Positions 25,420 to 58,849 of a stretch of 64,000 bases of DNA are shown here, in pieces; the stretch's first letter is position 1; each line of letters starts with the position of its first letter. The notes under the pieces are model-generated. The model saw nothing but the letters and a program-made list of their open reading frames with translations. It had not been told where the DNA came from and did not search any database. Source of the DNA: an uncultured Gammaproteobacteria bacterium (GTDB lineage Bacteria > Patescibacteriota > Microgenomatia > Daviesbacterales > UBA10151); NCBI GenBank assembly GCA_964500725.1, contig CAZCNP010000002.1:133347-197346 (forward strand), given 5' to 3'. The position numbers and the translations under genes were made by a program.

Positions 25420-25437
25420 AAGTACTATTTTACAACT

Positions 25438-26631: not shown

Positions 26632-26635
26632 GATT

Positions 26636-27670: not shown

Positions 27671-27675
27671 ATAAA

Positions 27676-33689: not shown

Positions 33690-34593
33690 ACTTTATATAA
33701 TCGGCAAGTCCCTTCTCTAAATCCATTTTTGGAAACCATCCGATAATTTTTTTGGCTTTCTTGTTGTCCATTGTACCCCGTTTTGGTCTGTCCTGTAAAT
33801 CTTTCACCTCGACTTCGAATTTAAAGTATTTCTTTAAAACATCAACAAATTGAAACAGACTAATAGCGTTACCGCCGCTTATATGAAATACTTCTTTGGC
33901 CGGGGCTTTTAAAGCAACATCGGCAATCCCTCTGACGAGATCTTTTACATAAATAAAATCCATGACAATATTTTTATTGATCCAGAATTTCTCGCCTCTT
34001 AAAATTTTACTTAAAATAATATTGCTTGCCCTTGAGTTCATGTCGCCAAAGCCATATATATTTGTGGTTCTGACCACATTCCAGTTGCTAAGTTCTGCTT
34101 TGGTTAAAAATTCCCCGCCTGCTTTTGATAATCCATAAGGAGTTTTAGGTACAAGTTGATCTTCCTCGTTGATCACATCTTCACAATCTCCATAAGCGGA
34201 TATGGAGGACATGAAAACAAATTTTTTAACGGGAAGACTTTTTATTGCTTCGACAATTTTGTAAGTTAAAGCAAGATCCTCTGTTATTTGTTTTGAAGAG
34301 ATGTTGATATCATTTGCGCGTTCTAAGGGAATTCCGGCCAGATGAATTAAGACATCAGGTTTTTCTTTTTTTAATATTTCTTCTCCCTTTTCTTCGAATT
34401 TTTTTCGATAGATTTTAGCCCCCTTTAGCAAAGTTTCTTTTTTAAACTTATTTATGTTTTTGGTGATTTTTGAGTTCCACTCAGTATAAAAAATAAAGGG
34501 ATCAATAATTACAACGTCATGTTTTCTTGAGATTAATTCACGGGTAAGCCACGACCCTACAAATCCACCGCCTCCTACTATGAGAATTTTCAT
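33664..34593 (-). CDS. NAD-dependent epimerase/dehydratase (extended SDR).
   Basis: MKILIVGGGGFVGSWL Rossmann motif. YGLSK (YxxxK). Confidence 0.6.
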   Translation of the reverse strand: MKILIVGGGGFVGSWLTRELISRKHDVVIIDPFIFYTEWNSKITKNINKFKKETLLKGAKIYRKKFEEKGEEILKKEKPDVLIHLAGIPLERANDINISSKQITEDLALTYKIVEAIKSLPVKKFVFMSSISAYGDCEDVINEEDQLVPKTPYGLSKAGGEFLTKAELSNWNVVRTTNIYGFGDMNSRASNIILSKILRGEKFWINKNIVMDFIYVKDLVRGIADVALKAPAKEVFHISGGNAISLFQFVDVLKKYFKFEVEVKDLQDRPKRGTMDNKKAKKIIGWFPKMDLEKGLADYIKYVKKYKFA

Positions 34594-34797: not shown

Positions 34798-36015
34798 ATG
34801 AAAAACGGAAAAACATTAAGAGTTAGTCATGCACAGTCCGTATACGGAGATGAGGAGATAAACAGAGTTGTAGCGGTACTGAAAGAACACAGAACTTTAA
34901 TCGGCCGGGAGGTGGATGAATTCGAAAAAAGGGTTGCCAGTCTTTTTAAGAAGAACTACGGTATTATGGTAAACTCCGGTTCTTCGGCAAACTTAGTGGC
35001 AGTTGAACTTTTAGATCTTCCTGCCGGCAGTGAGGTTATTACTCCGCTTCATACTTTCTCAACAACAGTAGCGCCTCTCGTAAATAAAGGATTAATTCCG
35101 GTTTTTGTCGATGTTAAACCAGGGGAGTATGTTATAGATGTAGATAAAATAGAAAAAGCAATTTCCAAAAAAACTAAAGCTTTAATGATACCTATCCTGT
35201 TTGGTTTAGTGCCGGATATGGAGAAACTACAAAAATTAGCTAAGAGTTACAACCTGATTTTCTTGGAAGATTCCTGTGATGCAATAGTCTCCCTGTTTAA
35301 GAATAAGCCAACCGGTGTGTATTCGGATATAACAACAACCTCGGTTTATGGGTCACATGTTATTACTGCAGGTGGCGGAGGGGGAATGGTTATGGTAAAT
35401 AGCGAAAAGTACAGGGATAAGGCAAAAATGTTAAGGGGATGGGGTCGCAGCTCTGCTGTATTTTCAGAATCGGAAGATATTGATGTGCGCTTTTCCCGAA
35501 AAATTGATAATGTTTTATATGATGGCAAGTTTATCTTTGATAGTGTTGCCTATAATTTTCTTCCTTTAGAAATAGGCGCAGCTTTTGGCAATGTGCAGCT
35601 TAACAAGTTAAAGGAGTTCTGCAGAATCAGAGAAAGGAATTATAAGTTTCTGGTTAAAGTTTACAATAAATATTCAGATTATTTTATCCTTCCGGTAGTG
35701 CATAAAGACTCAAGGCCGCAATGGCAGATCTTTCCCTTAACTATCAGGGAAAATGCTCCTTTTACCAGAATTGAATTCGTGAGGTTCTTGGAGGAAAATA
35801 ATGTACAGACCAGACCATTGTCAACAGGTAATGTTTTAAGACAGCCCGGCTTTAAAAATATTCCACATAGGGATACTCAAAAAGAATACCCGTTCTCTGA
35901 TGAGGTATTTGAGCGGGGTTTCATGACGGGTATACATCAAGGCTTAACCCTGGAGCATTTAAACAGATTAGAAGAGGTGGTTGATTCTTTCTTCAAAAAA
36001 CTAAAATCCCGTTGA
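34798..36015 (+). CDS. DegT-family PLP/PMP-dependent sugar 3-dehydratase (ColD / E1-type; the PLP lysine is replaced by histidine).
   Basis: SVYGSHVITAGGGGGMVMV. The other two DegT paralogs have K at this position (FSFNATKIMMSGQGG, FSFYGNKVITTGEGG). Only two Cys in the whole protein. Confidence 0.65.
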   Translation: MKNGKTLRVSHAQSVYGDEEINRVVAVLKEHRTLIGREVDEFEKRVASLFKKNYGIMVNSGSSANLVAVELLDLPAGSEVITPLHTFSTTVAPLVNKGLIPVFVDVKPGEYVIDVDKIEKAISKKTKALMIPILFGLVPDMEKLQKLAKSYNLIFLEDSCDAIVSLFKNKPTGVYSDITTTSVYGSHVITAGGGGGMVMVNSEKYRDKAKMLRGWGRSSAVFSESEDIDVRFSRKIDNVLYDGKFIFDSVAYNFLPLEIGAAFGNVQLNKLKEFCRIRERNYKFLVKVYNKYSDYFILPVVHKDSRPQWQIFPLTIRENAPFTRIEFVRFLEENNVQTRPLSTGNVLRQPGFKNIPHRDTQKEYPFSDEVFERGFMTGIHQGLTLEHLNRLEEVVDSFFKKLKSR

Positions 36016-36053
36016 GTTAATTAGAGCCTCTATTCATATGATAAAATTATTCT

Positions 36054-36908
36054 ATGCTGAAAGCTAAACTAGCTATAGTGACAGGAGGATCAAGGGGGAT
36101 TGGATTTGCTATCGCAAAGGAACTTACTGAAAAAGGAGCAGAAGTTATTATCTGTTCCCGAAATAACGATCAATTAAGTGAAGCAGTGAGCAAGCTTTCT
36201 ACCCCTTCAAAGCCGGCTTTTGGAATAGTAGCTGATGTATCAAAATTTGAAGATTGTCAGAAGTTAATTGATTTTGCCTATTCAAAAAGGGGAAGGATTA
36301 ATATATTGGTCAATAACGCCGGTATCTTTGGTCCGATTGGTTTGCTTGAGACAAATAACCCGGAAAAATGGGAAGAAGTTTTAGCAATCAATGTATTAAG
36401 TGCAGTGTATTGCTCTCAGTTGGTTATTCCATACATGAAAAAAAATGGGGGCGGGAAGATTATTAATTTAGCCGGCGCAGGCGTAGGCAGTCCTCATGCG
36501 CATCCAAGATTTAGCGGTTATTATACATCCAAATCAGCCATTGTAGGTTTTACTGAAACTATGGCAGAGGAGCTTAAAGAGGATAATATTCAGGTTAATG
36601 CGATTGCGCCCGGCGCGATTGCCTCAGAGTTACAATTTGATCTGCTAAAGATGGATAAAACTTTGGTAGGGGAAAATATGTACAAAACTGCAGAGCAGCT
36701 CCTGGAGCAGAATGATATTCCTATAAAATCTGCTGCGAAACTGGCAGCATTTTTGGCTTCGGAAAAAGCGAATCATATAACCGGCAGACTGCTTAGCTCT
36801 AAGTGGGACTCAATTGAGCAATTAGCAGAGATTGAAAGGTTTACCCAAAATAGATATCGATTACGAAGAATTGATAATAAAAAATTTTTTGAAAAAACTG
36901 ATGGATAA
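36054..36908 (+). CDS. Classical short-chain dehydrogenase/reductase.
   Basis: KLAIVTGGSRGIGFAIA, NNAG, YTSSK (YxxxK). Confidence 0.7.
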   Translation: MLKAKLAIVTGGSRGIGFAIAKELTEKGAEVIICSRNNDQLSEAVSKLSTPSKPAFGIVADVSKFEDCQKLIDFAYSKRGRINILVNNAGIFGPIGLLETNNPEKWEEVLAINVLSAVYCSQLVIPYMKKNGGGKIINLAGAGVGSPHAHPRFSGYYTSKSAIVGFTETMAEELKEDNIQVNAIAPGAIASELQFDLLKMDKTLVGENMYKTAEQLLEQNDIPIKSAAKLAAFLASEKANHITGRLLSSKWDSIEQLAEIERFTQNRYRLRRIDNKKFFEKTDG

Positions 36909-36916
36909 ACTATAAA

Positions 36917-37849
36917 ATGAAAATAATATTCTTTGGTCTTGGTTCTATCGGGTTGAGGCATGTTAATATTCTGCAGGAGAATTATCCGCATGATTTATTT
37001 GCTTTTCGTTCAGGAATAAAGGAGGAAGCAAATAATTTGGGGATTAAGGAAATTTATTCCTGGGATGAAGTGAAAACCTTAAAGCCTGATATTGCTTTTA
37101 TAACTAATCCAACCTCCCTTCATGTCGAAACTGCGATAAAATGTGCTGAAATTGAGTGTAAACTTTTTATTGAAAAACCAATAGACAAGGATTTGGATGG
37201 TTTGGATAAACTTTTGGATATAGTCAAAAAGAAACACCTTGTCACTTATGTAGCTTACTGTTTACGTTTTAATTCTGTTCTTAAAAAACTTAAAGAATAT
37301 ATTAATACAGGAAAGGTTCTGCACTTGAGAGCTGTTTACACGTCATTTTATCCTCTTTGGAGACCTGACACCGAGCATTTGAAAGCCTATTCTGCCCATT
37401 CTGGAATGGGCGGAGGGGTTATCCTTGATCTCTCCCATGAGCTTGATTACGTTTCCTGGCTTCTTGGTCCTATTGAAAAAATAGGGGGTAATTTTTCAAA
37501 AAGAAGCAAAGTAACAATAAATACTGAAGACTGGGCAGATATTTTGGTTTCAGCAGAACTTGCCCCTGCCAGCATCCACGTTAATTTTTTTAGTCAGTTG
37601 AAACAAAGGTATGTACAAATTGATTTTGAAAATTTAACTGTAATAGGTGATCTTGTTAATTCAGAAATAAAAGAATATGAAGGACAAACACTCGCGAGAA
37701 ATTTAAGAGTTGATCCGAGTGGACAGGAATACGAAGAGCAGATAAAGTACTTTTTTGATAATATAAATAATCCAGGAATGATGAATAATTTAATCGAAGC
37801 GGCTGATTTATTTAAGAAAATAATACTCTTCAAGGAGAAAAAAATATGA
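36917..37849 (+). CDS. Gfo/Idh/MocA-family oxidoreductase.
   Basis: MKIIFFGLGSIGLRH and FIEKPI (EKP motif). Confidence 0.6.
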   Translation: MKIIFFGLGSIGLRHVNILQENYPHDLFAFRSGIKEEANNLGIKEIYSWDEVKTLKPDIAFITNPTSLHVETAIKCAEIECKLFIEKPIDKDLDGLDKLLDIVKKKHLVTYVAYCLRFNSVLKKLKEYINTGKVLHLRAVYTSFYPLWRPDTEHLKAYSAHSGMGGGVILDLSHELDYVSWLLGPIEKIGGNFSKRSKVTINTEDWADILVSAELAPASIHVNFFSQLKQRYVQIDFENLTVIGDLVNSEIKEYEGQTLARNLRVDPSGQEYEEQIKYFFDNINNPGMMNNLIEAADLFKKIILFKEKKI

Positions 37850-38235
37850 AGTTTGAACACTTAGCTTTAAATGTAAAAGATCCGCTTAATTTAGTGAAAT
37901 GGTATTGCGAAAACTTAGGTTTCTCAGTTGTTAAGGGGATGGATGCTCCACCTTTCGCTCATTTTATAGTTGATTCTTCAAAACATATACTACTTGAGAT
38001 TTTTTATTTAGATGATAAAGAAGTAATAGATTTTTCTGGAGTCGATCCTGCTTCTGTGCATCTTGGTTTTTCTGTTGAAGATATAGAAGAAGAATATAAA
38101 AAACTTATTTCAGCAGGAGCTATGGCCGTCAGTGAAATTACCCTTACAAACAGTGGAGATAAAATAGTAATGCTACGTGATCCCTGGGGAACTCCGGTTC
38201 AATTACTTAAAAGAAAAGGGGCAATGATAAAATAA
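37846..38235 (+). CDS. VOC/glyoxalase-family small protein.
   Basis: FEHLALNVKD...HLGFSVEDIEE. 129 aa, betaalphabetabetabeta-type pattern. It overlaps the upstream stop (ATGA). Confidence 0.45.
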   Translation: MKFEHLALNVKDPLNLVKWYCENLGFSVVKGMDAPPFAHFIVDSSKHILLEIFYLDDKEVIDFSGVDPASVHLGFSVEDIEEEYKKLISAGAMAVSEITLTNSGDKIVMLRDPWGTPVQLLKRKGAMIK

Positions 38236-38239
38236 AAAG

Positions 38240-38968
38240 ATGAATATTTTAAATTCGAAGAATCAAGCTTTGCTTATCACAATTTGCGCAAGAGGCGGTT
38301 CAAAAGGGGTTAAAGGTAAAAATGTTAAAATTTTAAACGGAAAGCCCCTAATTTATTACACTGTTAAGCAGGCAAAAGAGTGGGGGCAAGGAAAGCATGT
38401 TATTGTTACTACTGATTCAGAGGAAATTGCAAAAGTTGCCAGGGAATGTGGCGCAGAAGTTCCTTTTTTAAGACCTGCTGAAATGGCAACGGATACGATA
38501 TCAAAACTTCCTGCCATTAGACATGCATTAAAATTTTCAGAAGAGCTTTATAAAGAAAAATACGATTTAGTTGTTGATCTTGATCCTACAGCTCCTATCA
38601 GGAAAACTTCTGACTTGGAAAATGCTTTGAATTCTTTTTTAGAGAAACTCCCCAAAACATTATTTAGTGTTGTGCCCGCTCATCGGAATCCATATTTTAA
38701 TATGGTTGAAGAAGATTCTGAAGGGAAGGCTCACCTTATCAAGACCGGTGATTTTTTCAGTAGACAGAGTGCGCCTAAGGCATATGACATGAATGCATCG
38801 ATATACATTTACAGTAGAGATTTTTTGATGGATGAGACAAATATGAAACCAATTAGTGATAATTCTATTATTTATATAATGGATGAAATATCACGGTTTG
38901 ATATAGATGCAGAGGTTGATTTTAAATTCATAGAATTTTTATTAAAAGAAGGTATAATATCCTTGTGA
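38240..38968 (+). CDS. Acylneuraminate/nonulosonate cytidylyltransferase family (NeuA/PseF/LegF-like CMP-sugar synthetase).
   Basis: ALLITICARGGSKGVKGKNVKILNGKPLIYYT is the CTP_transf_3 signature. Confidence 0.75.
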   Translation: MNILNSKNQALLITICARGGSKGVKGKNVKILNGKPLIYYTVKQAKEWGQGKHVIVTTDSEEIAKVARECGAEVPFLRPAEMATDTISKLPAIRHALKFSEELYKEKYDLVVDLDPTAPIRKTSDLENALNSFLEKLPKTLFSVVPAHRNPYFNMVEEDSEGKAHLIKTGDFFSRQSAPKAYDMNASIYIYSRDFLMDETNMKPISDNSIIYIMDEISRFDIDAEVDFKFIEFLLKEGIISL

Positions 38969-39756
38969 GCAATTATTCTAATAAATTTTCATTAAAAGGA
39001 AAGAACGCTTTTGTTACCGGAGGCGTAGGGTTTTTAGGATCGGAAGTTGTTAAATCTTTGTCTGAAGCAGGTGCATTTGTGGTCATATTGGATATAAATG
39101 AAAAAAAAGGCAACGGACTTAAGGACGAACTCAAAAATATCAACAGAGATGTTTCATTCGAAATTTTTGATATTACAGATTTAGGAAATATTGATAAAAA
39201 TATAGAAACCCTTAATGAGAAATATAGGCAAATAGATATTTGGATTAATACAGCTTATCCCAAAACTGATGACTGGGGAACAAGGGCTGGGGAGCTATCT
39301 TTAGATTCATGGAGAAAAAATATTGACATTCATCTTAACGCCTACAGTTGGATCAGCAGGAAAGTATGTTTGATTATGAAAGAGCAAAAAGGAGGCAGCC
39401 TTGTTAATTTTGGTTCCATTTATGGGGTGGTGGGAAATAATTTTTCTGTTTATGAAGGTACAGATCTCAGAAGTCCAATGGCATACGCAGCAATTAAAGG
39501 AGGAATTATTAATTTAGGTCGTTATCTGGCTTCTTATTTTGGGGAGTTTAATGTTAGAGTAAACACTGTTTGCCCGGGGGGAATTTTCAATAATCAGGAT
39601 GAGACATTTGTAAAAAATTATGAAAAAAATACGCCGCTTAAGAGGATGGGAAAACCTGATGAGATTGCTGCTGCAGTTTTATTTTTAGCTTCCGATGCGG
39701 CCTCGTATATTACCGGTACTACATTCATGGTTGATGGCGGATGGACAGCAATTTAA
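38965..39756 (+). CDS. SDR-family oxidoreductase (FabG-like).
   Basis: KNAFVTGGVGFLGSEV and YAAIK (YxxxK). Confidence 0.65.
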   Translation: MSNYSNKFSLKGKNAFVTGGVGFLGSEVVKSLSEAGAFVVILDINEKKGNGLKDELKNINRDVSFEIFDITDLGNIDKNIETLNEKYRQIDIWINTAYPKTDDWGTRAGELSLDSWRKNIDIHLNAYSWISRKVCLIMKEQKGGSLVNFGSIYGVVGNNFSVYEGTDLRSPMAYAAIKGGIINLGRYLASYFGEFNVRVNTVCPGGIFNNQDETFVKNYEKNTPLKRMGKPDEIAAAVLFLASDAASYITGTTFMVDGGWTAI

Positions 39757-39763
39757 ATAATTC

Positions 39764-40567
39764 ATGAGGAAGATTGATAAGAGAAAAGAATACTGGGATA
39801 ATAATTATCTCGTATACTGGAAAGATAGGGTAGATAAAAACTCTACTAACCCACTTTCCAAAACTGATATTCATCCTCCAAATGAGAAGATATTCATAAA
39901 ATATTTTGAAGCTGCCTTAGCTTTACAATCCGGGTCCAAAAAAAAGATATTAGACGTAGGATTGGGGTTTGGTAGATTTGTACCGATATATAGACCATAT
40001 TTTGATAAAAATATCTGGGGAATTGATATAGCTGATCAAATGATCCAAGAGGCTGGGAGAATTTACCATGAATTGAAAGAGCATTTTTATATTTCATCTT
40101 CAGAAAGGATGCCTTTTCCGAATAAAATGTTTTCATTTATCCTTTGCTGGGAAGTATTTGATGCAACTTTTCAAGATCAAACCCTTTGGGAATTTCAACG
40201 AGTACTTGAGCCAGGAGGAATTGTCTTAGTTACAGGAAAAAATAATAATTATAGTCCATTGGATGAAAAAGCTTATATCGCAGAGATTAATGCGAGGAAA
40301 AAAGGCCACCCCAATTTTTTTACTGATACAAAATTATTAATGAAAAATATAAGTAATTTTGGTTTTAAGGTAGAAAAGTTTTACCCCTTTAAATTAAGAG
40401 ATGATTTTTCGAAAGATAAAGTAGCCCCACGGAACAGTGAAGTTTTTTATCAATATATCCTTATTATTAAAAAAGTGAAAGATACTTTAAAAAAGAAACT
40501 TTCTTATAAAGTTGCTGATAAATATAGCTTTTCTTATAAAAGTAAAAATGCGAAAGTTAAGAAATAA
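39764..40567 (+). CDS. Class I SAM-dependent methyltransferase.
   Basis: ILDVGLGFGRF...FSFILCWEV. Confidence 0.5.
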   Translation: MRKIDKRKEYWDNNYLVYWKDRVDKNSTNPLSKTDIHPPNEKIFIKYFEAALALQSGSKKKILDVGLGFGRFVPIYRPYFDKNIWGIDIADQMIQEAGRIYHELKEHFYISSSERMPFPNKMFSFILCWEVFDATFQDQTLWEFQRVLEPGGIVLVTGKNNNYSPLDEKAYIAEINARKKGHPNFFTDTKLLMKNISNFGFKVEKFYPFKLRDDFSKDKVAPRNSEVFYQYILIIKKVKDTLKKKLSYKVADKYSFSYKSKNAKVKK

Positions 40568-41732
40568 AAGTATCAACAAAAGTATTACCTACTTGATCGT
40601 GAGCTGCAACTCCCATTTTTTTGCCGCTATCGCCTTTAATAAAATTATACTCCCAGCTTAATTCTTTGGTTTTAAACATTGGCAGCCAGCGATATAAATC
40701 CTGTGAATATTTAATTGCCAAAAAAGGCTGAGGATTAAAGAGAGGTTTATTGCTTTTAATTATTATTTTCTCAGAAGTTCTCTCAATACTTAAAAGAAGC
40801 TGCTTGCCTTTTTTAAAGTTACCTGTCAGCGAAACTGCTGCTGCTGCGGTTGTATAAAAATAATCAATATGGGTTTTTTTGGAAATTTCATTCAACCACT
40901 GCATGATCTGAACTATTGCTTCTGAATGATCACGGTAATCATGCTCAAAACCTGAAAAGATTACATCCTTTCCTTTATTTGCTTCTTCAAATGCTTCTTC
41001 AACATGAGCCTTTGTTATTACATGGGCTCCTGATTGTATATCAAGGCTTTTGACGATAAACCTTCTCATATCTTCCTCTTTAGTATGATCAGCAGCAGAT
41101 GGATGATAGAAAGTGAAACCGGGGGGGGCTTTTTTCCAACTTAAGATATCTTTTATTTTTCTACCATCTGCTTCTTCTTTTTCCCAATTTAAATCTTTGC
41201 AATTTCTGTTTGAATAATCAAAAGGAATCCATTGTTCAAGCCAGTTTGATTGCGTGTCATCTTCTATAGTTCCGCCGGATCTATAGGAAAGAGGGAAAAA
41301 TTCACGGTCAATCACGAGACGGCATAATACATTTTCATATTCACGGTTTTCAAACCAGTTTAAACCCCACTCATTTCCGATTCCTGACAAAGAAGGGTGG
41401 TGGTAATGCCATGCAATTTCATCACCATATTCTTTAAGCTTTGCACCCCATTTTTTTTTGTAATGATCGAAAACTTTATGGTAACCAAAATCATGAGAAA
41501 CAGGATTTGTTCTAAAACCTGTCCAATTGAGCATGAACCATGTAAAGATTGCAGACCCGTTTTTACTATCAGGGAAAGAAAAACGTAGTTTTTGAGAAAA
41601 CATTTTTGAAAGGAATTCTTTATCTATATCTTTCCAATTCTCGAGGAAATGAGTAATGCCTTTGTAATTTGGATCTTTTAGGGGTCCCTCGGTATCAATA
41701 CAAAATACAACAAAAACTTTTCCTTTTTTCAT
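40557..41732 (-). CDS. Hypothetical soluble protein (391 aa) inside the nonulosonate module.
   Basis: No confident motif. VFCIDTEGP and a His-rich WHYHH segment. Possibly a hydrolase or deacetylase-like step (a PseG/NeuC functional analog?). Confidence 0.3.
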   Translation of the reverse strand: MKKGKVFVVFCIDTEGPLKDPNYKGITHFLENWKDIDKEFLSKMFSQKLRFSFPDSKNGSAIFTWFMLNWTGFRTNPVSHDFGYHKVFDHYKKKWGAKLKEYGDEIAWHYHHPSLSGIGNEWGLNWFENREYENVLCRLVIDREFFPLSYRSGGTIEDDTQSNWLEQWIPFDYSNRNCKDLNWEKEEADGRKIKDILSWKKAPPGFTFYHPSAADHTKEEDMRRFIVKSLDIQSGAHVITKAHVEEAFEEANKGKDVIFSGFEHDYRDHSEAIVQIMQWLNEISKKTHIDYFYTTAAAAVSLTGNFKKGKQLLLSIERTSEKIIIKSNKPLFNPQPFLAIKYSQDLYRWLPMFKTKELSWEYNFIKGDSGKKMGVAAHDQVGNTFVDTFIS

Positions 41733-43156
41733 TTTTTTCTTTTTAATAATATTTTTCTAATAATTTTCAGGGTTTCTTCGTCAACGCTTGAATTAGTGGG
41801 AAAGTTCAAGCCTCTTGCTGAAATTTCTTTACTGTTTGTGTTTGAAAAAACATATTGTTTATAAATCTCCATATTTCCCAGTGGATAAAAGAAGGGTCTT
41901 GAGTCTACTTTTTTATTTTTTAACCTTTTTAACAAAGAATCTCTTCCCCTTTCATTTACAAGGGCTGAAACTAACCATGTAATTTTTTTTCTTTTAACAA
42001 GATTATCTGTCTGAAATTCTATTCCTTTAACTCCTTTTAAGGCTCTACGGTATTTATCTTCTATTTTTTGCCGGTTTGAAAGTATGTCCCCAACTCTTTC
42101 TATTTGTGCCAGTCCTATTGCCGCCTGCAAATTTGTCATTCTGTAATTATAGCCCACCATATCATGCCAGTATCTTTTTTTGGTACTCATTCCGTGATCT
42201 CTTAGAATTCTTATTTTTTTGGCTAATGCTTTAGAATTAGTTGTACACATCCCTCCCTCGCCTGTAGTAATAACTTTATTTCCATAAAAAGAAAAACATC
42301 CTATATGGCCGATTGATCCCACCTTTTTCCCGGCGTAGGTTGCCCCGTGTGCTTCTGCGCAATCTTCAATAACATAAAGTTTGTGTTTTTTTGCAATTTT
42401 CATAATTTTGTTCATTTCACAGGGTTGGCCGTAAAGATGAACAACAATAATAGCTTTTGTTTTTTTGGTAATAGCTTTTTCTATTTCTTTCGGATCGATA
42501 CACCAACAGGCAGAATTAATATCAACAATAACAGGTGTAGCATTTGTATAAAGAACACAATTGATTGTGGCTGCAAAAGTTAAGTCGGGTACTATTACTT
42601 CATCTCCTGCTTTTATTCCCAGAGCAGTTAATGCCAAATGAAGAGCTGCTGTGCCATTGGAAACGGCAATGCCGTATTTACATTCACAAAAATCAGCAAA
42701 TTTTTCTTCGAATTCTGTAATATAAGTTCCACGGCTGGATATCCATGAGGAAATAAAGGCATCAATGAGGTATTTGAGTTCATTACCCCCCAGCTCAGGA
42801 CTTGCAACAGGTATAAAAATTCGGTTATCAAGTTCATAGAACTTTTGATAAATGAAGTTTTCATCTACTATAGGAATGATTCTGATTTTTTCGTTTGTCA
42901 TCCCGATTATTTTTTTCGGGTCATCATTAATTGTTGCGTATGTGAAGCGTTTATTCATAATTTCTTTAACAGGAGCTTCTAATGTAGTTTTCTTTATAAT
43001 CAATTTTCTGATATCGCCATCAGTTAATATGCCGCAGAGTTTATTATTGTTATCAATAATGAATGTTACGCCTTTGCCGTTATTCTTTATAACCTGTAGC
43101 GCATCAAACAAAGTGTTTTCTATATTACATAGCAGGGGATCAGAATTTCTTTTCAT
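41729..43156 (-). CDS. CBS-pair domain fused to a DegT-family PLP-dependent aminotransferase.
   Basis: N-terminal ~110 aa has a CBS-like pattern (LCGILTDGDIRK...). Then LGGNELKYL...GTAALHLALTALGIKAGDEVIVPDLTFAAT and FSFYGNKVITTGEGG (Lys retained). Confidence 0.75.
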   Translation of the reverse strand: MKRNSDPLLCNIENTLFDALQVIKNNGKGVTFIIDNNNKLCGILTDGDIRKLIIKKTTLEAPVKEIMNKRFTYATINDDPKKIIGMTNEKIRIIPIVDENFIYQKFYELDNRIFIPVASPELGGNELKYLIDAFISSWISSRGTYITEFEEKFADFCECKYGIAVSNGTAALHLALTALGIKAGDEVIVPDLTFAATINCVLYTNATPVIVDINSACWCIDPKEIEKAITKKTKAIIVVHLYGQPCEMNKIMKIAKKHKLYVIEDCAEAHGATYAGKKVGSIGHIGCFSFYGNKVITTGEGGMCTTNSKALAKKIRILRDHGMSTKKRYWHDMVGYNYRMTNLQAAIGLAQIERVGDILSNRQKIEDKYRRALKGVKGIEFQTDNLVKRKKITWLVSALVNERGRDSLLKRLKNKKVDSRPFFYPLGNMEIYKQYVFSNTNSKEISARGLNFPTNSSVDEETLKIIRKILLKRKK

Positions 43157-44211
43157 AGTTCTATAATCTGGTTCTTCTCAAAATCTTTTCTTGCTTTATG
43201 ATTGAAAACAGATCTGAAGCGGATAGGAGATATGCCTATGCCGCCTGTTCTTTTGGCTATAATATTCTTTTCGCTCATTAATTCTCCTTTTGCAATTGGA
43301 CATAAGGCAACTAGGCACTTTTGCATCATTTTTCTATTTTCTATCTCAGAGGCAGTGGGAGATTTTTCACTCCTACCCATGAATTTTTCAACCCTTCTTA
43401 TCTCTGTAACAAGTTTTTTAAGTTCAATAGGAGAAAGAGAAGCTTTATGATCCGGCCCCGGCATTGACTTATCAAGAGTGAAGTGCTTTTCTATTACCTT
43501 TGCTCCCATGGCAACTGCATAAGGAGCCGCTCCAAGATAGATTGAGTGATCAGAATAACCAGTGAGAATATTGAATTTTTGCTGAAATAATGTCAAAACA
43601 TTAAGATTCATTTCATCATCTTTGACGGGGTAATCAGAAGTACAGTGAAGTAATAATACTGCTTTATTAAATTTAGAAATTTCAGTAAGTGCTGTTTTTA
43701 TTTCTGAGAGAAAACTCATTCCGGTTGATAATATAATCGGTTTATTTTTTTTAGCGACTTTTATTAAGTAAGGAATATTAGTGGTGTCAGTAGATGAAAT
43801 CTTATAAGCAGACAAATTTAAATCATCTAATTCTTCCAGGCTGTCTTCATCGAAAGGGGTAGTCAAAAAGATAATTCCTTTTCCGTCACAGTATTTCTTC
43901 AGTTCTATGTTTTGTTGTTTGTTTAACTCCAGCTTCTTTAACATTTGGAATTGAGACTCGGCTTTGCCTGTTCTTTTTTGATAATTAGCTTTAGAAACGT
44001 TTTCCAATATCAAACTTTCAGTTTTAAATGCCTGGAATTTAACTGCATTTACACCTGCTTCAGAAGCTTTATCAATCAGTTTTTTAGCAAGGTTAATATC
44101 TCCGTTATGATTTACCCCTGCTTCTGCAATAATAAAAACCTCTGAATCCCGGGAAATTTCGAATCTACCAATTTTAATCTGTTTGTCAAAATTCATACTA
44201 TTTATAACCAT
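43153..44211 (-). CDS. Nonulosonic acid synthase, NeuB/PseI/LegI family (PEP-condensing). Includes a C-terminal SAF domain.
   Basis: FIIAEAGVNHNGDINLAKKLIDKA...VKFQ...YKISS...ILSTGMS and a C-terminal SAF-like region. Confidence 0.8.
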   Translation of the reverse strand: MVINSMNFDKQIKIGRFEISRDSEVFIIAEAGVNHNGDINLAKKLIDKASEAGVNAVKFQAFKTESLILENVSKANYQKRTGKAESQFQMLKKLELNKQQNIELKKYCDGKGIIFLTTPFDEDSLEELDDLNLSAYKISSTDTTNIPYLIKVAKKNKPIILSTGMSFLSEIKTALTEISKFNKAVLLLHCTSDYPVKDDEMNLNVLTLFQQKFNILTGYSDHSIYLGAAPYAVAMGAKVIEKHFTLDKSMPGPDHKASLSPIELKKLVTEIRRVEKFMGRSEKSPTASEIENRKMMQKCLVALCPIAKGELMSEKNIIAKRTGGIGISPIRFRSVFNHKARKDFEKNQIIEL

Positions 44212-44968
44212 TGAATTCTAACAATTTTAATTGTTGATAGTAAAGCTCCATTTTTCCCCTTTTTTCCAGTAAATATTTTAAGGCCATTTTCCTTTTAATT
44301 TTATTTATGATATAAATCATTTGTTTTTCTTTACGAAATTTTTTTACTTTTACATCCGGATTTTCGATTTCAGTTACGTCTATTTCTAAAGGATTTCTGA
44401 TTACATCAATATATTTAAAACCGTTATTCGTATAAACCTGCAAACCGGCCTTATTTTTCAGATCTGTTGTTAGTTCGACAGCATCATTTTTATAATATGC
44501 TGCAATTGTCTGCAGGATTTTTATCGCTATACTTCCGAGTCCCAGGTTTTGATATTTATCGGCAATAGCCAGCCCCATTTCTGAGACCCGAAGAACATTT
44601 TTTTGAAAATTTTTGTTATTGATTTTCCATAAAAAGAAATGCCCGATGATATCTTCACCCTTTTTAATAACAAATGAGGCATCTATCTTTTTTTCTTCTT
44701 TTTCAATTGCAAAGAGTAAAGCAGTTATTAGTTTTTTTTTATCATCCCAAGGATAAGGACAAAATAAGTCCCTGCTTTTTTTACTTAGAATATCTTTGAA
44801 TTTGAGTAAAGCTTCCAGATCACTCCTTTCAAGATTTTTAATTAGATAGCTTGCTTTTTCATCACCGATCTCCAATTGGAAATTCCAGGCGCTTAAGATA
44901 CCTTTGTTTTTGAAGAGATATCTATTTTTTTTCTTTTGAATATCCAAAACATTTTGACTTAGAATCAT
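44198..44968 (-). CDS. GNAT-family N-acetyltransferase-like. Candidate PseH/LegH-type acetyltransferase.
   Basis: LGLGSIAIKILQTIAAYY (GNAT motif A-like Q/RxxGxG/A). Context next to NeuB-like. Confidence 0.4.
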   Translation of the reverse strand: MILSQNVLDIQKKKNRYLFKNKGILSAWNFQLEIGDEKASYLIKNLERSDLEALLKFKDILSKKSRDLFCPYPWDDKKKLITALLFAIEKEEKKIDASFVIKKGEDIIGHFFLWKINNKNFQKNVLRVSEMGLAIADKYQNLGLGSIAIKILQTIAAYYKNDAVELTTDLKNKAGLQVYTNNGFKYIDVIRNPLEIDVTEIENPDVKVKKFRKEKQMIYIINKIKRKMALKYLLEKRGKMELYYQQLKLLEFNGYK

Positions 44969-44996
44969 GTAATATAATTATAGAATTATAACACCT

Positions 44997-46127
44997 ATGA
45001 CTTCTCAATCATCAGAAAACATACATTCCGAAATCTACCTTCCTTCTATCGGAAGATCAAATCATGACTTAAGGAAAAGAATTCAGCTTCTACAAGATTT
45101 AAACAGCCTGAAAACTAAAACAGGACTTATGCTCTTACTTTTGTCACAAGAAGATTTAGAAGAAAAGGCGATAAAAAAGGTACTTAGTAATCTTAAAATA
45201 TTTGCAAAAGAACAAAAACAGCTGAAAATATTTTTTATGCATCCGAATAAACCGCTTTCCGGAAAAAAAAGACTAAACTTTTTGGACAATAGTGATTGGT
45301 CGATGAAGTATGTAAAAAAATCTATAGATCTTTGTTTTTCAATCCAGGAGGAAATAAATTCTGATTGGGGAAAGCTTTTAACTTTTCATTTAAATACTTT
45401 AATCCCCCCTTCCCTTTGGAGGAATGATAAACAATACTGGGACAATCAGTTTTTAAAAGTGTACGAAAACTTAAAGGATCTTTCAGATTATGCTAATTCT
45501 AAAAAAGTAACTTTAGCTGTTGAAACTACGCCAATCCCTGAATTTGGGGATATTGCAGCAGAACAGAATAATTATTTGCATGATTATAAATGTTATTGGC
45601 CTGATCTAGGTAATCCATGGCCTTTATTTTTTTGGAGAGATGAAATTTCAATGTTAAGGAAAGCTGGTTATTCAATTGTGATTGATTGGAGCCATTCTTA
45701 TATCGCGCTCTCGACACTTAAAAATTTAGGCAAACTGAAGGACAAAGAGAAAGTTATTAAAAAATATATGATTTATCAGACAGATATTGAGCTTGCAAAG
45801 AGTTTTAAAAGTTTTGTAGATTTAATCTGCAATGATACAGAAAAAGGAGATGTTTGGCATGTAAATAATTCCAGAGGGAGCTACAAGTATAAAGATATAT
45901 ACGGAAAAGAAGAAATATTTTATGAGGGAGTTAGTTTGGATGAGGGTGAGATTTCAGGTAAAGAGATAAATGAATTATTAACCTGGGGTTTGGATAATAA
46001 AATTAAAATTGTTATTGAGGTAAATGAAACGGATTTTAATAAGAATGAAAATACAAAAAAATCTCTGGAGGTTATCAGAAAAATTATTTCTAGTAAATTT
46101 TCTCAGTCAAACCGACGATTTTTTTAA
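44997..46127 (+). CDS. Hypothetical protein.
   Basis: 376 aa ORF with coding-like composition and no recognised motif. Confidence 0.3.
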   Translation: MTSQSSENIHSEIYLPSIGRSNHDLRKRIQLLQDLNSLKTKTGLMLLLLSQEDLEEKAIKKVLSNLKIFAKEQKQLKIFFMHPNKPLSGKKRLNFLDNSDWSMKYVKKSIDLCFSIQEEINSDWGKLLTFHLNTLIPPSLWRNDKQYWDNQFLKVYENLKDLSDYANSKKVTLAVETTPIPEFGDIAAEQNNYLHDYKCYWPDLGNPWPLFFWRDEISMLRKAGYSIVIDWSHSYIALSTLKNLGKLKDKEKVIKKYMIYQTDIELAKSFKSFVDLICNDTEKGDVWHVNNSRGSYKYKDIYGKEEIFYEGVSLDEGEISGKEINELLTWGLDNKIKIVIEVNETDFNKNENTKKSLEVIRKIISSKFSQSNRRFF

Positions 46128-47091
46128 ATTCCTCTTTCGTTTTAATAGCATTTAGACCGAAGTATTCATCCGCTACTTCTTTTTGTTTCTTGTTAATTTT
46201 AAAATTAACCTCAGAAAAAGCTTTGATAATATCATTGTATGGTTTTGAAGAAAAATAGTCCTGGGCAAAGTTTGACCACTCTTTGTTTGCTCTGAATTTT
46301 GGAAATTTATAAAAAATAATATGAGGTTTATTCAAATAAACGCAATAACTCACATGCGTTCCGGCATCATTTGATATCGAGAGATCGGAAACCTCTATTA
46401 TGCTTTTAAGGCGGGGCAGGAACAAGGGATCAAGAATATGTCCGGCTGTAACGCATTCAAAACCAAGTCTTTGATAATATTTATGAAAGCCCAATAGAAT
46501 GTCAGTCCAATACAGGCACACTCTAATACTTTTATAACCTTTTGAAATCTCTTTGACTTTGTTTAAAAACCAGTTTTTATCGTGTTTAATAATTAAATAA
46601 TTTACAGAATGTCCCGGGAATAAGATAATATTTTTTCCTAAACGTTTTCTTTCTGAGGCAATTTTTTCTTTTGTGTAAAAGCTTTCAGCATAGTGTATAA
46701 AAGGTCCGATATCAAAAGATCTTTTGCCATATTTTTCAATTACTCCCTTCCTAAATTTGCTGTGGGTAATACAGGAAGGAAGGCCGGATTCGAATTCGAT
46801 ATTAAAAATTTTATCAGTTAAATGAAGCCCATGTTCAATTATGAATTTAAACTGGTATTCATCAGCAAGGCCGAGGAATTTCTTAAAAACCTTGGCGTGT
46901 CCATACCAGTCGTTAGGTTTGTTAATCTCATTTGTGAATGGGGAAAAGAGGTTAATTTTTTTTGATAAAGGTTCAATATCTGTTAAATCTAAATTAGATC
47001 TCCTTGCAATCTGTGTATTATAGTTAAATTTACTAACAGGATTTCTGTTTACAAAAAAAAGAGATCTTCTTACAAATTTTTTGTAATTCAT
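46090..47091 (-). CDS. Hypothetical protein. Candidate unrecognised transferase.
   Basis: 333 aa ORF. It overlaps the 3' end of the convergent ORF by 38 nt, so one of the two ends may be mis-set. Confidence 0.3.
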   Translation of the reverse strand: MNYKKFVRRSLFFVNRNPVSKFNYNTQIARRSNLDLTDIEPLSKKINLFSPFTNEINKPNDWYGHAKVFKKFLGLADEYQFKFIIEHGLHLTDKIFNIEFESGLPSCITHSKFRKGVIEKYGKRSFDIGPFIHYAESFYTKEKIASERKRLGKNIILFPGHSVNYLIIKHDKNWFLNKVKEISKGYKSIRVCLYWTDILLGFHKYYQRLGFECVTAGHILDPLFLPRLKSIIEVSDLSISNDAGTHVSYCVYLNKPHIIFYKFPKFRANKEWSNFAQDYFSSKPYNDIIKAFSEVNFKINKKQKEVADEYFGLNAIKTKEEFKKIVGLTEKIY

Positions 47092-47098
47092 TCAATTT

Positions 47099-48046
47099 TC
47101 ATCTTCCTTTCAGAATTTTGTCATACCAAACAAGATTTCGGCAGTGTTCATTTATTGTACAGAGGGTTTTTTTATCCGTTAGAAATGACGCTACTTCCTT
47201 AAACAATCCTGCTTTAAATTCCGTATCCAATTTATCATTTAAGTCAATATCTGTAATATTAAAGCTGCCGTGTTTTTGAGTCTGCAGTTTTTCCAAGGGG
47301 CGGAAAATCAAACGGTGATTTTTCATCATTAATTCAATTCCCCATCTTCCGGGCGCAAGCCAATTTGCATGATAAGTAAAAGGAGTTTTTTGATTTGTTG
47401 TTCCAAAACCGGTAAAAATTGCTCCACCGGGGTGCCACGGAAGAGAAGCATAAGTATTTGCAGTTAGAGTCTGTGGACTTCCTGCCAAAAAGAAAGCAAG
47501 ATCCATAACATGAGAAGAATTATGCAATATCCATTGTTCTTTTATTTCTTTTGAGAAAGGAAGAGCAGCTATAGTTGCAGATACTTCGGTAAAGTCAAAA
47601 TGAAAAGATAAAACTCCACCGTCTTTGTGGATAATTTGGCGGGCCTTCGTAACAGATGAATAAAATCTGCGATTGTAACCAAGAAAAACCTGAGCCGATT
47701 TTTTTTGCGATTCATCCCTAACCAGTTCAATCTCCGCTTTATTAAGCCCGCCTGGTTTTTCAAGCAATATGGATTTGATGCCGTGTCTTATCAGGGAAAT
47801 GCATACTTCCCCCAATTGATCGCCTGTTACTGCCACTATAGCTTTCCAGTCTTTATAATCTCCCTTGGAGAGAAATGATTTTGCCCCTCCTGAGATAGGT
47901 GAGATTCCTGACTTTTCCCTAAAAATCCTTGCCGATTTTTCACCTCTTCCTATTACTAAAATATCATGATTTTGGGATTTTAATACTTTAAAAAATTCAT
48001 AAGCCATCCAACCTGTTCCGAAAAGGAGAATCTTAGACTTTTTCAT
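47099..48046 (-). CDS. Gfo/Idh/MocA-like oxidoreductase (divergent).
   Basis: N-terminal KILLFGTGWMAYEF Rossmann-like motif and LLEKPG (EKP motif). Confidence 0.45.
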   Translation of the reverse strand: MKKSKILLFGTGWMAYEFFKVLKSQNHDILVIGRGEKSARIFREKSGISPISGGAKSFLSKGDYKDWKAIVAVTGDQLGEVCISLIRHGIKSILLEKPGGLNKAEIELVRDESQKKSAQVFLGYNRRFYSSVTKARQIIHKDGGVLSFHFDFTEVSATIAALPFSKEIKEQWILHNSSHVMDLAFFLAGSPQTLTANTYASLPWHPGGAIFTGFGTTNQKTPFTYHANWLAPGRWGIELMMKNHRLIFRPLEKLQTQKHGSFNITDIDLNDKLDTEFKAGLFKEVASFLTDKKTLCTINEHCRNLVWYDKILKGR

Positions 48047-48048
48047 AA

Positions 48049-49068
48049 TTATGTAAAAGGATAAAGTTTATATTTTTTTTGGCTATTCTTATTAAGAAAT
48101 TTCAGGAGCGGGTTTAAAATATCCAGATGCATTTTTATCGATACGGCAAAAGGAGTTAATTTACAAGAACCGTTTTTCAAGAGGTCGGAAACTACCAGGT
48201 TTGTCATCTGGCTCTGATATAAAATTGGGGTTTTCTCCAAATTCCATTTCCAGTTTGTTTCAGAACTGGAAATAAATGATTTATTTTCATCAGCTCTTAT
48301 TAAACAGCGGTATGTTTGGGATAAAATCTCAATAGTAAAAGGAACATTACCGTTCGGATAATTAGTAAAAGATCCTGAACTGCCATTTTTAAAATAAACA
48401 TTTAAAGTACCAGTTAATTCCAGAAACCCTTTTCTTTTACTTTCAATTGGTAGGGTGTCCAAGCAGCTGGTATCCAAAGTAAAATCATAACAATTAGTTA
48501 AGTAGGCCATATGATCAATGTAGTGTATAGAGTTAGTGGCCAGACCCTGTTGACTGGAGTTTACAATATAAGTAAGAGGATTATTATTAAAGTGTTTTTT
48601 TAAATCTGCATAAAAAGGAGTGGTCCGCATATTGCAATTTACCCAGGCTTCACATTCTTTTGCAGCGAGCAAATTTTTTATGTCATTATAATCCTGATAT
48701 TTTTGGAAAAGCAGTTTTTCAAAAATTATATATTTCACTTTTGATAAACTTAACAACTGCTTTGTAACAGCCCCCCGTACGTCTGCAGTTGTGGCTATGA
48801 TTGCTATGTCTAGCATATTAGAAATTTCTTTTATATCTAACAAGTAACTTAGCTGGTGTCTGTTATGAGTTTGGATCTGATCGTAAGTTTTCTTGGCTTC
48901 TTTTAATGAATTTTCGGAAGGATCAATTACTTCAATAGAAAGCGATTCTTTAATGTCTGCTAAGGCTTGTAAATGCCTTCTGCCGATATTTCCTGCTCCA
49001 ATTATACAAATTTTCTTTAACATGGAAATACTATACCATAAATCCCGTTTCAAGCTATAGATAATCAC
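48049..49068 (-). CDS. Gfo/Idh/MocA-family oxidoreductase.
   Basis: KICIIGAGNIGRRHLQAL and IFEKLL. Confidence 0.5.
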   Translation of the reverse strand: MIIYSLKRDLWYSISMLKKICIIGAGNIGRRHLQALADIKESLSIEVIDPSENSLKEAKKTYDQIQTHNRHQLSYLLDIKEISNMLDIAIIATTADVRGAVTKQLLSLSKVKYIIFEKLLFQKYQDYNDIKNLLAAKECEAWVNCNMRTTPFYADLKKHFNNNPLTYIVNSSQQGLATNSIHYIDHMAYLTNCYDFTLDTSCLDTLPIESKRKGFLELTGTLNVYFKNGSSGSFTNYPNGNVPFTIEILSQTYRCLIRADENKSFISSSETNWKWNLEKTPILYQSQMTNLVVSDLLKNGSCKLTPFAVSIKMHLDILNPLLKFLNKNSQKKYKLYPFT

Positions 49069-58824: not shown

Positions 58825-58849
58825 TCTCCTTTGTTAAAATGCTTTTGTC

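Follow-up and report, generated by a model that had tools for sequence, protein, structure and literature searches.

How does a bacterium make a nonulosonic acid when the enzyme that usually prepares the sugar for the synthase is not recognisable in the gene cluster? Nonulosonic acids (sialic, legionaminic and pseudaminic acids) decorate flagella, capsules and O-antigens and affect immune recognition, phage susceptibility and motility, and their genome-based prediction relies on spotting the NeuC, LegG or PseG step. The question is raised by a stretch of 64,000 nt of contig CAZCNP010000002.1 (hereafter the window), which holds a NeuB-family synthase, a NeuA-type cytidine monophosphate (CMP) transferase and, between other genes of the same module, a DegT-family aminotransferase fused to a pair of CBS domains (Table 1). 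About 60 open reading frames (ORFs) of the window were scanned with Pfam and NCBIfam profiles, together with PDB sequence searches, AlphaFold2 (AF2) modeling, Foldseek and hhalign. The answer that the evidence favours, with some reserve, is that the region is a module for a CMP-activated amino-nonulosonate resembling legionaminic acid (Leg), set within a very large surface-polysaccharide locus of O-antigen type, that a TIM-barrel protein takes the place of the hydrolase/2-epimerase, and that tailoring of the sugar follows.

The synthase is assigned with NCBIfam model TIGR03569 ('N-acetylneuraminate synthase'), which it matches at 415.8 bits, over the cutoff of 399.65. Its C-terminal SAF/AFP-like region lies at residues 299-350, the metal-binding His residues of the SDHS and EKHFT motifs are kept, and R321 aligns with R314 of Neisseria meningitidis NeuB (NmNeuB), a residue that presumably contacts the N-acetyl group of the substrate. 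Conservation of this Arg points to an N-acyl group at the future C5 of the product. The best PDB relative is Bacillus subtilis SpsE (1VLI; 205 bits), followed by PseI (169 bits) and Neisseria NeuB (about 168 bits), and the score against the PseI model, 254 bits, is under the cutoff of 340. The CMP-transferase has PseF as its best NCBIfam model (128 bits, with the equivalog cutoff of 205.7 not reached), and its best PDB match is the CMP-pseudaminic acid (Pse) synthetase 6IFD (E 1.5e-31). KdsB models give no more than 43 bits and KdsB structures about 1e-7, so that the protein is of the NeuA/PseF type and not a KdsB, a possibility that an earlier note made from this DNA alone had kept in mind. 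The same note had read the NeuB/NeuA pair as a CMP-nonulosonate module of the amino type, which the profile and PDB matches bear out, and the sugar as Pse-like or Leg-like. Only the second half of that description stands. A legionaminic-type 5,7-diamino sugar, further epimerised and N-modified, is favoured as the product because NeuB is nearer to SpsE than to PseI and because the Pse-specific models, PseI and PseC, stay far under their cutoffs.

In the aminotransferase, a CBS domain is found at residues 5-54 and a KpsF-type CBS pair extends over residues 14-100; the DegT part has an SFYGNK motif with the invariant catalytic Lys294. The best NCBIfam match is the LegC-family model TIGR04181, at 359 bits against a cutoff of 420, and the PseC model gives 268 bits, under its cutoff of 423. 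The best PDB matches are guanosine diphosphate (GDP)-perosamine synthases (3DR7, 3BN1 and 3DR4; 335-337 bits), and PglE follows with 202 bits. It should be noted that the Per clade also includes GDP-dependent LegC, and that LegC of Campylobacter jejuni uses GDP-sugars.

A CBS module on an aminotransferase had been called atypical in the earlier note. A search with the 475-aa protein gave at least 8000 candidates, all with E <= 1e-20. Full-length CBS-DegT proteins (465-496 aa, 94-100% query coverage, 56-84% identity) from Bacteroidota, Bacillota, Omnitrophota, Planctomycetota and others make up more than 110 of the 120 top clusters. The fusion is therefore normal in a widespread subfamily. Five gene contexts of CBS-aminotransferases were sampled, and four of them share one co-linear arrangement, in which NeuB is followed by a PglD-like hexapeptide acetyltransferase, an AP_endonuc_2 TIM barrel (285-290 aa), the CBS-aminotransferase and finally CTP_transf_3. 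Epimerase_2, the NeuC/LegG domain, is absent from all four. Two of the four (loci L090 and L093) sit in flagellin glycosylation islands with Maf, and there the cassette adjoins a Polysacc_synt_2 dehydratase of the PseB/PglF type, which acts on uridine diphosphate (UDP)-N-acetylglucosamine (GlcNAc). The NodB-like and GT-B-like families described below do not include a 447-aa unknown protein in L094 or the 736- and 740-aa proteins of L090 and L093.

The association was counted in a metagenome scan with the family alignment, on loci with more than 6 kb of flanking sequence, and unfused relatives (44-57% identical in the aminotransferase domain) served as a natural control. The 17 CBS-fused loci have NeuB in 11 cases, the TIM barrel in 12, the PglD-like acetyltransferase in nine, NeuA in ten and Epimerase_2 in one. 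The corresponding counts among 25 unfused relatives are one, one, three, zero and one. Since the fused loci are rich in NeuB, TIM barrel and NeuA and the unfused ones are not, the CBS pair is a hallmark of the aminotransferase subfamily of the NeuB cassette. Clustering of the ORFs of 18 cassette loci gave five near-universal families only: aminotransferase (18), TIM barrel (17), NeuB (16), acetyltransferase (16) and NeuA (12); a 4,6-dehydratase is present in only four. The CBS fusion marks a conserved cassette that is almost always without the usual nucleotide-sugar hydrolase/2-epimerase. Throughout the family the CBS pair has an invariant T-D-G-D-I-R-R motif, which we take to resemble that of KpsF/GutQ-type CBS pairs. 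The pair probably senses a nucleotide or nucleotide-sugar, and allosteric control by it, as the earlier note had supposed, is a reasonable guess for a putative regulatory domain.

All five cassette functions are found in the window: NeuB, an N-acyltransferase, an AP_endonuc_2-type TIM barrel, the CBS-fused DegT protein and CTP_transf_3. The aminotransferase is 57-60% identical to cassette members, and NeuB is 59% identical to the cassette NeuB of Crocinitomix and 52% to that of Bacillus, compared with 41% to NeuB of a canonical Leg cluster. The window deviates in three ways. A GNAT protein, for which the PDB search gave generic GNAT matches only, stands at the place of the PglD-like acetyltransferase; the TIM barrel is divergent and on the opposite strand; and neuA is in a neighbouring convergent operon. 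As judged from sequence, the module is one variant of this five-gene cassette, which is widespread and biochemically uncharacterised. The frames of GNAT, NeuB, CBS-aminotransferase and a NodB-like protein overlap in one minus-strand operon, and the overlap of the GNAT and neuB frames suggests translational coupling.

The usual enzymes of substrate preparation were looked for across the window. No Epimerase_2 (PF02350) match over threshold is found among the approximately 60 ORFs, and the only trace of it is a sub-threshold match inside the Glyphos_transf protein at 58850-60148. Neither PseG (Glyco_tran_28_C) nor PseB (Polysacc_synt_2 over threshold) is found in the module, which agrees with the earlier note that no NeuC, PseG or PseB is recognisable there; the other scanned ORFs of the window likewise give no PseG match. 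A LegB/PglF dehydratase is likewise absent within 36917-49068, and extended short-chain dehydrogenase/reductases (SDRs) elsewhere in the window (for example 33664-34593, 17943-19052 and 22889-24859) give 50-74 bits against the LegB model cutoff of 475.

Three ORFs, of 391, 376 and 333 aa, had been singled out earlier as lacking assignment and as candidates for the missing hydrolase, epimerase and transferase. They indeed have no significant Pfam or NCBIfam match, and PDB sequence searches with them gave no matches; the folds now assigned to them, a CE4/NodB-like hydrolase, a xylose-isomerase-like TIM barrel and a probable GT-B, make such candidacies reasonable. The 376-aa ORF is the TIM barrel. 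Its sole profile trace is a sub-threshold AP_endonuc_2 match, and its family is rare (32 clusters), with H131, E176, D230, H233, E310 and E341 invariant. In hhalign the family aligns with the cassette TIM barrel (95.7% probability, E 1e-8), and the metal-binding motifs of the two, His, Glu, Asp-x-x-His and His, fall into register. A groundwater metagenome contig (L006) carries a 651-aa NeuB-AP_endonuc_2 fusion (7275-9230, minus strand) and a 619-aa DegT-methyltransferase fusion (11069-12928, minus strand); the fused AP_endonuc_2 is of the cassette type, and the two fusions flank a homologue of the 376-aa TIM barrel of the window. By its fusion to NeuB, the TIM barrel is linked in function to the synthase. 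From these sequence relationships, the TIM barrel is a candidate for sugar release and/or 2-epimerisation before NeuB, in place of NeuC, LegG or PseG. A literature search on the CBS-aminotransferase or TIM barrel in nonulosonate pathways found nothing relevant, and as far as the searched literature shows, the TIM-barrel step of the NeuC-less cassette has never been characterised.

On the plus strand, the genes of a Gfo/Idh/MocA oxidoreductase, the CMP-transferase and a classical SDR follow each other in the order of ElaA, ElaB and ElaC. In Acinetobacter baumannii KL49, which makes 8-epi-Leg, the CMP-transferase ElaB makes CMP-Leg5,7Ac2; the proposal is that ElaA, a Gfo protein, oxidises C8 and that the resulting ketone is reduced on its opposite face by ElaC, an SDR (PMC13656337). 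The ElaABC proteins have been described genetically and structurally, with 3EZY, 6IFD and 6UH2 as molecular-replacement models for ElaA, ElaB and ElaC (PMC13656337), and these are also the top PDB relatives of the window proteins. The likeness is drawn through the clustered enzyme set and these structures, and not through Ela sequences. A difference is the gene for a small VOC-fold protein between the Gfo and CMP-transferase genes of the window, a gene that is missing from an otherwise syntenic close relative (L009). The trio recurs beside NeuB in many sampled loci, and homologues of the Gfo protein are found beside NeuA in 31 loci of the NodB-like family. The SDR scores 242 bits with PRK09186 (cutoff 255) and 182 bits with the flagellin-modification model FlagModPtmA (cutoff 350). 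By analogy, the Gfo protein is a candidate oxidase of the CMP-nonulosonate and the SDR a candidate keto-reductase that would finish the epimerisation of the CMP-sugar.

The 391-aa ORF was modeled by AF2 from a 44-sequence alignment with a mean predicted local distance difference test (pLDDT) score of 94, and folds into a beta/alpha barrel followed by a C-terminal beta-sandwich. The top Foldseek matches in the PDB are insect chitin deacetylases, bacterial polysaccharide deacetylases and PuuE allantoinase (5Z34, 5ZNS, 3RXZ, 3CL6 and 3S6O; probability 1.00, E 6e-6 to 5e-4, template modeling (TM) score 0.4-0.5). The invariant residues D13, T14, E15, H109, H111, R151, D172, H264 and D265 fit a metal-dependent hydrolase. 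The ORF has no match to Polysacc_deac_1 (PF01522), and the canonical D-D / H-x(3-4)-H triad is replaced by D13-T14-E15 and H109-x-H111. About 400 homologues were found, none with a Pfam domain, in hosts that include Helicobacter cinaedi, H. marmotae, Treponema socranskii, a Bacteroides fragilis metagenome-assembled genome and bacteria of the candidate phyla radiation (CPR). Neighbourhoods were counted on 80 genome loci. For NeuB and NeuA the count was confined to the 51 of them that exceed 15 kb, and each has a homologue no more than 10 kb from the NodB-like gene in 44 of these.

Next to the NodB-like gene is a methyltransferase dependent on S-adenosylmethionine (SAM). The two genes also keep company elsewhere: 19 of 79 genome loci have a homologue of this methyltransferase (33-50% identity) at most 600 bp from the NodB-like gene. 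Many members of the NodB-like family are also fused to a class-I methyltransferase. A link through these fusions was considered and is weakened, as the fused domain of P0163 and the window methyltransferase share no significant similarity; the association of the two genes is thus drawn from the adjacency counts and not from the fusions. Two other roles of the NodB-like protein were set aside. In a Microgenomates genome (L008) its gene is inside a complete canonical Leg cluster with dehydratase, hexapeptide-DegT fusion, Epimerase_2, NeuB and NeuA, so that it is an accessory enzyme and not a replacement for LegG or PseG. Identity with PtmG, the acetamidino synthase of C. jejuni, was judged unlikely, as PtmG, according to a preprint, is an amidotransferase (bioRxiv 10.64898/2026.04.20.719630), and no NCBIfam or Pfam model matches the 391-aa protein. 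With the fold model as a guide, the most economical function is a candidate de-N-acetylation of the nonulosonate or CMP-nonulosonate, followed by methylation or re-acylation.

Two observations were made in the surroundings of these genes. In H. cinaedi (L079, 12374-15609) three separate NeuA-like cytidylyltransferase genes accompany the NodB-like/methyltransferase pair, a Gfo gene and SDRs, and in H. marmotae (L052, 12105-15694 and 19613-20206) there are four in the same company, which suggests several differently tailored CMP-nonulosonates. In addition, B12-binding radical-SAM enzymes, possible C-methylases of nonulosonates, recur beside NeuB in CPR and Planctomycetota: in L008 (1826-3400, 11206-12822 and 15291-16700), L094 (4107-5495) and L006 (3696-5171). 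They are of interest in view of a C10 CMP-ulosonic acid that has been reported in Magnetospirillum (10.64898/2026.04.20.719630).

The family of the 333-aa ORF is large, with 1711 representatives when clustered at 50%; it has no Pfam model and is often the N-terminal domain of proteins of 600-2800 aa with TPR, TylF-type O-methyltransferase, sulfotransferase and GT4 domains. Such a multidomain setting is typical of enzymes that build polysaccharides or modify their chains. Foldseek gave weak GT-B matches to the AF2 model: TagF (TM 0.41), LpxB, plant UGTs, MGD1 and UDP-GlcNAc 2-epimerases, including NeuC. The model suggests that the protein is probably a glycosyltransferase, perhaps a nonulosonyltransferase; the alternative is a nucleotide-sugar hydrolase similar to PseG. 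Upstream of it in the same operon is a pair of Gfo/Idh/MocA-like genes, homologues of which (41-42% identity for the first member) are adjacent in nonulosonate loci of Marinifaba (L034) and Magnetospirillum sp. (L026).

The proposed route, every chemical step of which is read from the enzyme families, would begin with amination of a nucleoside diphosphate (NDP)-4-keto-6-deoxy-hexose, or its N-acetylated form, by the CBS-aminotransferase, with the dehydratase that supplies this substrate encoded outside the cassette. The GNAT protein would N-acylate the amine, and the TIM barrel would strip the nucleotide and epimerise C2 if needed, instead of NeuC, LegG or PseG. NeuB would then condense the free sugar with phosphoenolpyruvate (PEP), and NeuA would activate the product with cytidine triphosphate (CTP). 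Tailoring would probably be on the CMP-sugar: the ElaA/ElaC-like Gfo and SDR proteins may invert a carbinol of the side chain, by analogy the one at C8; the NodB-like hydrolase may take off an N-acetyl group; and the adjacent methyltransferase may methylate the product. The Gfo pair may perform another redox epimerisation, and the GT-B protein would probably transfer the sugar. In its strongest form the proposal is a route independent of NeuC and PseG, in which the TIM barrel both removes the nucleotide and sets C2, the CBS pair acts as a nucleotide-sugar sensor that gates the aminotransferase, and the window product is an undescribed relative of Leg, de-N-acetylated, methylated and/or multiply epimerised, tailored by a new NeuB-associated NodB-like family. 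This full form is put forward tentatively, as possible and not as likely.

Several points weigh against these assignments. The role of the TIM barrel is argued from just co-occurrence, one fusion and the absence of NeuC, and among known members of the AP_endonuc_2/xylose-isomerase superfamily, isomerases, epimerases and dehydratases are more familiar than nucleotide-sugar hydrolases. The TIM barrel of the window is only distantly related to that of the cassette and is transcribed divergently from the NeuB operon, and the L006 contig has a window-type TIM barrel beside the fused cassette-type domain, so that the two types may not be equivalent. The substrate of the aminotransferase is uncertain, since the protein is nearest to GDP-perosamine synthases and misses the LegC cutoff. 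No 4,6-dehydratase is linked to the module in the window, where the extended SDRs elsewhere are candidates. The resemblance to ElaABC is by gene set and coinciding PDB relatives and not by direct sequence comparison, and where NodB-like proteins elsewhere carry a fused methyltransferase domain, that domain is not detectably of the subfamily of the window methyltransferase.

A first alternative is an ordinary legionaminic pathway that is split, with a LegB-type dehydratase and LegG/NeuC elsewhere in the genome, and with the TIM barrel, the GT-B protein and the Gfo pair serving other O-antigen sugars. The locus is a huge polysaccharide cluster with many genes for unrelated sugars, and the DNA examined is a 64-kb part of a longer contig. 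The cassette, without a dehydratase in most loci, depends on outside genes in any case, and one CBS-aminotransferase context (L092) has Epimerase_2 about 5 kb away, with NeuB not nearby. However the TIM barrel is as conserved as NeuB among the cassette loci (17/18 and 16/18), has a fixed place between acetyltransferase and aminotransferase, and is fused to NeuB in L006. Canonical Leg clusters, such as that of L008, have the epimerase beside NeuB, and the single occurrence of Epimerase_2 in the CBS-fused loci does not follow this pattern. A split pathway is thus rather unlikely.

The similarity to perosamine synthases leads to a second alternative. GDP-4-keto-6-deoxy-mannose would be converted by the CBS-aminotransferase, acting as a perosamine synthase, and by acylation to GDP-N-acyl-perosamine; the TIM barrel would only hydrolyse the nucleotide, and NeuB would give a Kdn-like 7-acylamino-3,7,9-trideoxy-nonulosonate with a 5-OH. 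A 2-epimerase would be unneeded because the sugar is already manno-configured, which would account for the absent NeuC-type epimerase. The PDB matches of the aminotransferase agree with such a route, as do the PglD/PerB-like acetyltransferase of the cassette and the occurrence of the nearest unfused relatives in contexts without NeuB. The first of these arguments does not discriminate, since C. jejuni LegC is itself dependent on GDP-sugars. Moreover NeuB keeps the Arg equivalent to NmNeuB R314, the L090 and L093 cassettes adjoin a dehydratase of the UDP-GlcNAc type, and the NodB-like and ElaABC-like tailoring genes otherwise accompany di-N-acetyl Leg clusters. The perosamine route is for these reasons quite improbable. 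That NeuB and NeuA make plain Neu5Ac or Kdn, with the aminotransferase and GNAT protein as an unrelated 4-amino-6-deoxyhexose branch and their adjacency a coincidence, agrees with the TIGR03569 match and with several independent amino-sugar and deoxysugar genes in the locus, but is hardly credible given the overlapping frames of the GNAT, NeuB, CBS-aminotransferase and NodB-like genes, the linkage of NeuB to the CBS-aminotransferase across phyla compared with unfused aminotransferases without NeuB, and the lack of NeuC or another source of ManNAc.

The features of the preferred Leg-type module are collected in Table 1. The ORFs named in the earlier note were recovered where it had placed them, and its domain calls for NeuB, the NeuA-type protein, GNAT, SDR and CBS-DegT were upheld by profile searches. 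It had overlooked the ElaABC-like trio (the Gfo gene is just upstream of 38240), the pairing of the NodB-like and methyltransferase genes, and the two Gfo oxidoreductases downstream.

Table 1. Genes of the nonulosonate module and its flanks, in window coordinates, with predicted products.
Position	Strand	Predicted product	Basis
36917..37849	+	Gfo/Idh/MocA oxidoreductase, ElaA/PtmF-like	Pfam GFO_IDH_MocA and C3 domain; best PDB 3EZY
37846..38235	+	Small glyoxalase/VOC-fold protein between Gfo gene and neuA	Pfam Glyoxalase E 7e-14
38240..38968	+	CMP-nonulosonate synthetase (NeuA/PseF/LegF/ElaB type)	CTP_transf_3 E 1e-19
38965..39756	+	Classical SDR, PtmA/ElaC-like, KAR-like	adh_short_C2 E 5e-44; best PDB 6UH2
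39764..40567	+	Class-I SAM-dependent methyltransferase	Methyltransf_11/25
40557..41732	-	NodB/CE4-like metal-dependent hydrolase with C-terminal beta-sandwich, 391 aa	AF2 and Foldseek
41729..43156	-	CBS pair and DegT pyridoxal phosphate (PLP) sugar 4-aminotransferase (Per/LegC-like clade)	CBS and DegT_DnrJ_EryC1 E 1e-124
43153..44211	-	NeuB-family nonulosonate synthase	NeuB domain PF03102 E 4e-88; TIGR03569
44198..44968	-	GNAT-family N-acyltransferase	Acetyltransf_1, Acetyltransf_3, weak, E 6e-7 to ~1e-6
44997..46127	+	Divergent xylose-isomerase-like (AP_endonuc_2) TIM-barrel metalloenzyme, 376 aa	hhalign to cassette TIM barrel
46090..47091	-	Probable GT-B-fold protein, 333 aa	AF2 pLDDT 95; no Pfam match
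47099..48046	-	Gfo/Idh/MocA-like oxidoreductase, first of pair	GFO_IDH_MocA
48049..49068	-	Gfo/Idh/MocA-like oxidoreductase, second of pair	GFO_IDH_MocA E 3e-11

The genes are very tightly packed. Only 28 bp (44969-44996) separate the divergent starts of the GNAT and TIM-barrel genes; the convergent TIM-barrel and GT-B ORFs overlap by 38 bp (46090-46127), and the convergent methyltransferase and NodB-like ORFs by 11 bp (40557-40567). Promoters and terminators must therefore fall within coding sequence, or some start codons are mis-set.

The DNA of the window has a G+C content of about 34%, and in profile scans a single polysaccharide locus fills the whole of it. This locus includes rmlD, rmlC, many GT2 genes, a Wzm/Wzt ABC exporter, a Wzx-like flippase, a GT-C protein and a GDP-heptose set (GmhA, an HddA-like kinase and an HddC-GmhB fusion); a faint match to the LA_3751/3752 family is also present (36.6 bits against a cutoff of 200). 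The GDP-heptose genes are part of a minus-strand modification block (20656-29291) that in addition has an RmlC-like epimerase, three extended SDRs, a second LegC/PseC-like aminotransferase (21716-22885) and a TIGR04440 glycosyltransferase, and its product could be an amino-deoxy-heptose. The plus-strand operon that ends in the Gfo, VOC, NeuA, SDR and methyltransferase genes starts with an RfbH/E1-like DegT protein (320 bits, cutoff 423) and a classical SDR (34798-36908). For these two, a divergent 4,6-dehydratase/C-methyltransferase pair at 32415-34593 is an alternative branch besides the nonulosonate.

Three paralogous TylCIII-type NDP-hexose C-methyltransferases (Methyltransf_13 and Methyltransf_14), all on the minus strand (1135-2433, 15311-16591 and 32415-33689), are an unusually high number of branched-sugar genes for one O-antigen cluster. 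A phosphonate-glycan gene set occupies 55263-60148 on the plus strand. It has a CTP_transf_like-PEP mutase fusion (55263-56582), a phosphonopyruvate-decarboxylase-like protein dependent on thiamine pyrophosphate (56534-57676) and an Fe-alcohol dehydrogenase (57673-58824), after which comes the TagF-like Glyphos_transf protein (58850-60148), and suggests that a nucleotide-activated hydroxyethyl- or aminoethyl-phosphonate is added to the polysaccharide. Two large ORFs inside the locus, both on the plus strand, are without Pfam match (6005-9448, 1147 aa, and 60154-62082, 642 aa).

What is out of the ordinary here is the NeuC-less cassette defined by the CBS subfamily, together with two further uncharacterised nonulosonate-associated families in the window. 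As the cassette spans Bacillota, Bacteroidota, Planctomycetota and candidate phyla without a NeuC, LegG or PseG step, many nonulosonate producers may be mis-scored as 'incomplete'. Roles are proposed for three families that have a generic Pfam model or none: the TIM barrel next to NeuB, the NeuB-associated NodB-like hydrolase and the large GT-B-like family. The CBS pair becomes a defining trait of one aminotransferase subfamily, and a tractable case for CBS regulation of a sugar pathway.

Comparison with known systems shows how the module is related to them. The CMP-Leg pathway of C. jejuni (LegB, LegC, LegH, LegG, LegI and LegF; PtmA, PtmB, PtmF and PtmE) has in common with the window a NeuB synthase, a DegT protein of the Per/LegC clade, an N-acyltransferase, a NeuA-type CMP-transferase and a PtmA-like SDR beside the CMP-transferase. 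In C. jejuni the CBS pair sits on the nucleotidyltransferase PtmE, whereas in the window it is on the aminotransferase. The window module further differs in that it is without LegG (Epimerase_2) or LegB, has a GNAT acyltransferase and a TIM barrel, and misses the LegC cutoff.

The sps pathway of B. subtilis (SpsM, C, D, G, E and F) is similar in its GNAT-type acetyltransferase, in SpsE as the nearest solved NeuB, and as a Leg route that is unlike the Campylobacter scheme. SpsG is a PseG-like GT-B hydrolase, and the TIM barrel of the window and cassette is found at its place; SpsC is without a CBS pair. SpsE is the Leg synthase, and SpsG is genetically required for a step ahead of it (PMC7439481).

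The NodB-like protein shares the beta/alpha-barrel fold of the CE4/NodB deacetylases (chitin and peptidoglycan deacetylases, PuuE), and its Asp, Glu and His residues are placed like their metal and catalytic residues. It differs from them in the missing Polysacc_deac_1 match, the TM scores of 0.4-0.5 and the extra C-terminal beta-sandwich, and its genes associate with NeuB and NeuA, not with polysaccharide-export or cell-wall genes. Similar in concept is Ca. Kuenenia stuttgartiensis, for which free-amine CMP-nonulosonates have been reported, along with a Leg-type cluster that includes a deacetylase and a formyltransferase (bioRxiv 10.64898/2026.04.20.719630). The partner enzyme there is a formyltransferase and in the window a methyltransferase, and the deacetylase family is unspecified for Kuenenia, so that the likeness is in concept only: enzymes of a Leg cluster would take an N-acetyl group off a CMP-nonulosonate and replace it while the sugar is nucleotide-activated.

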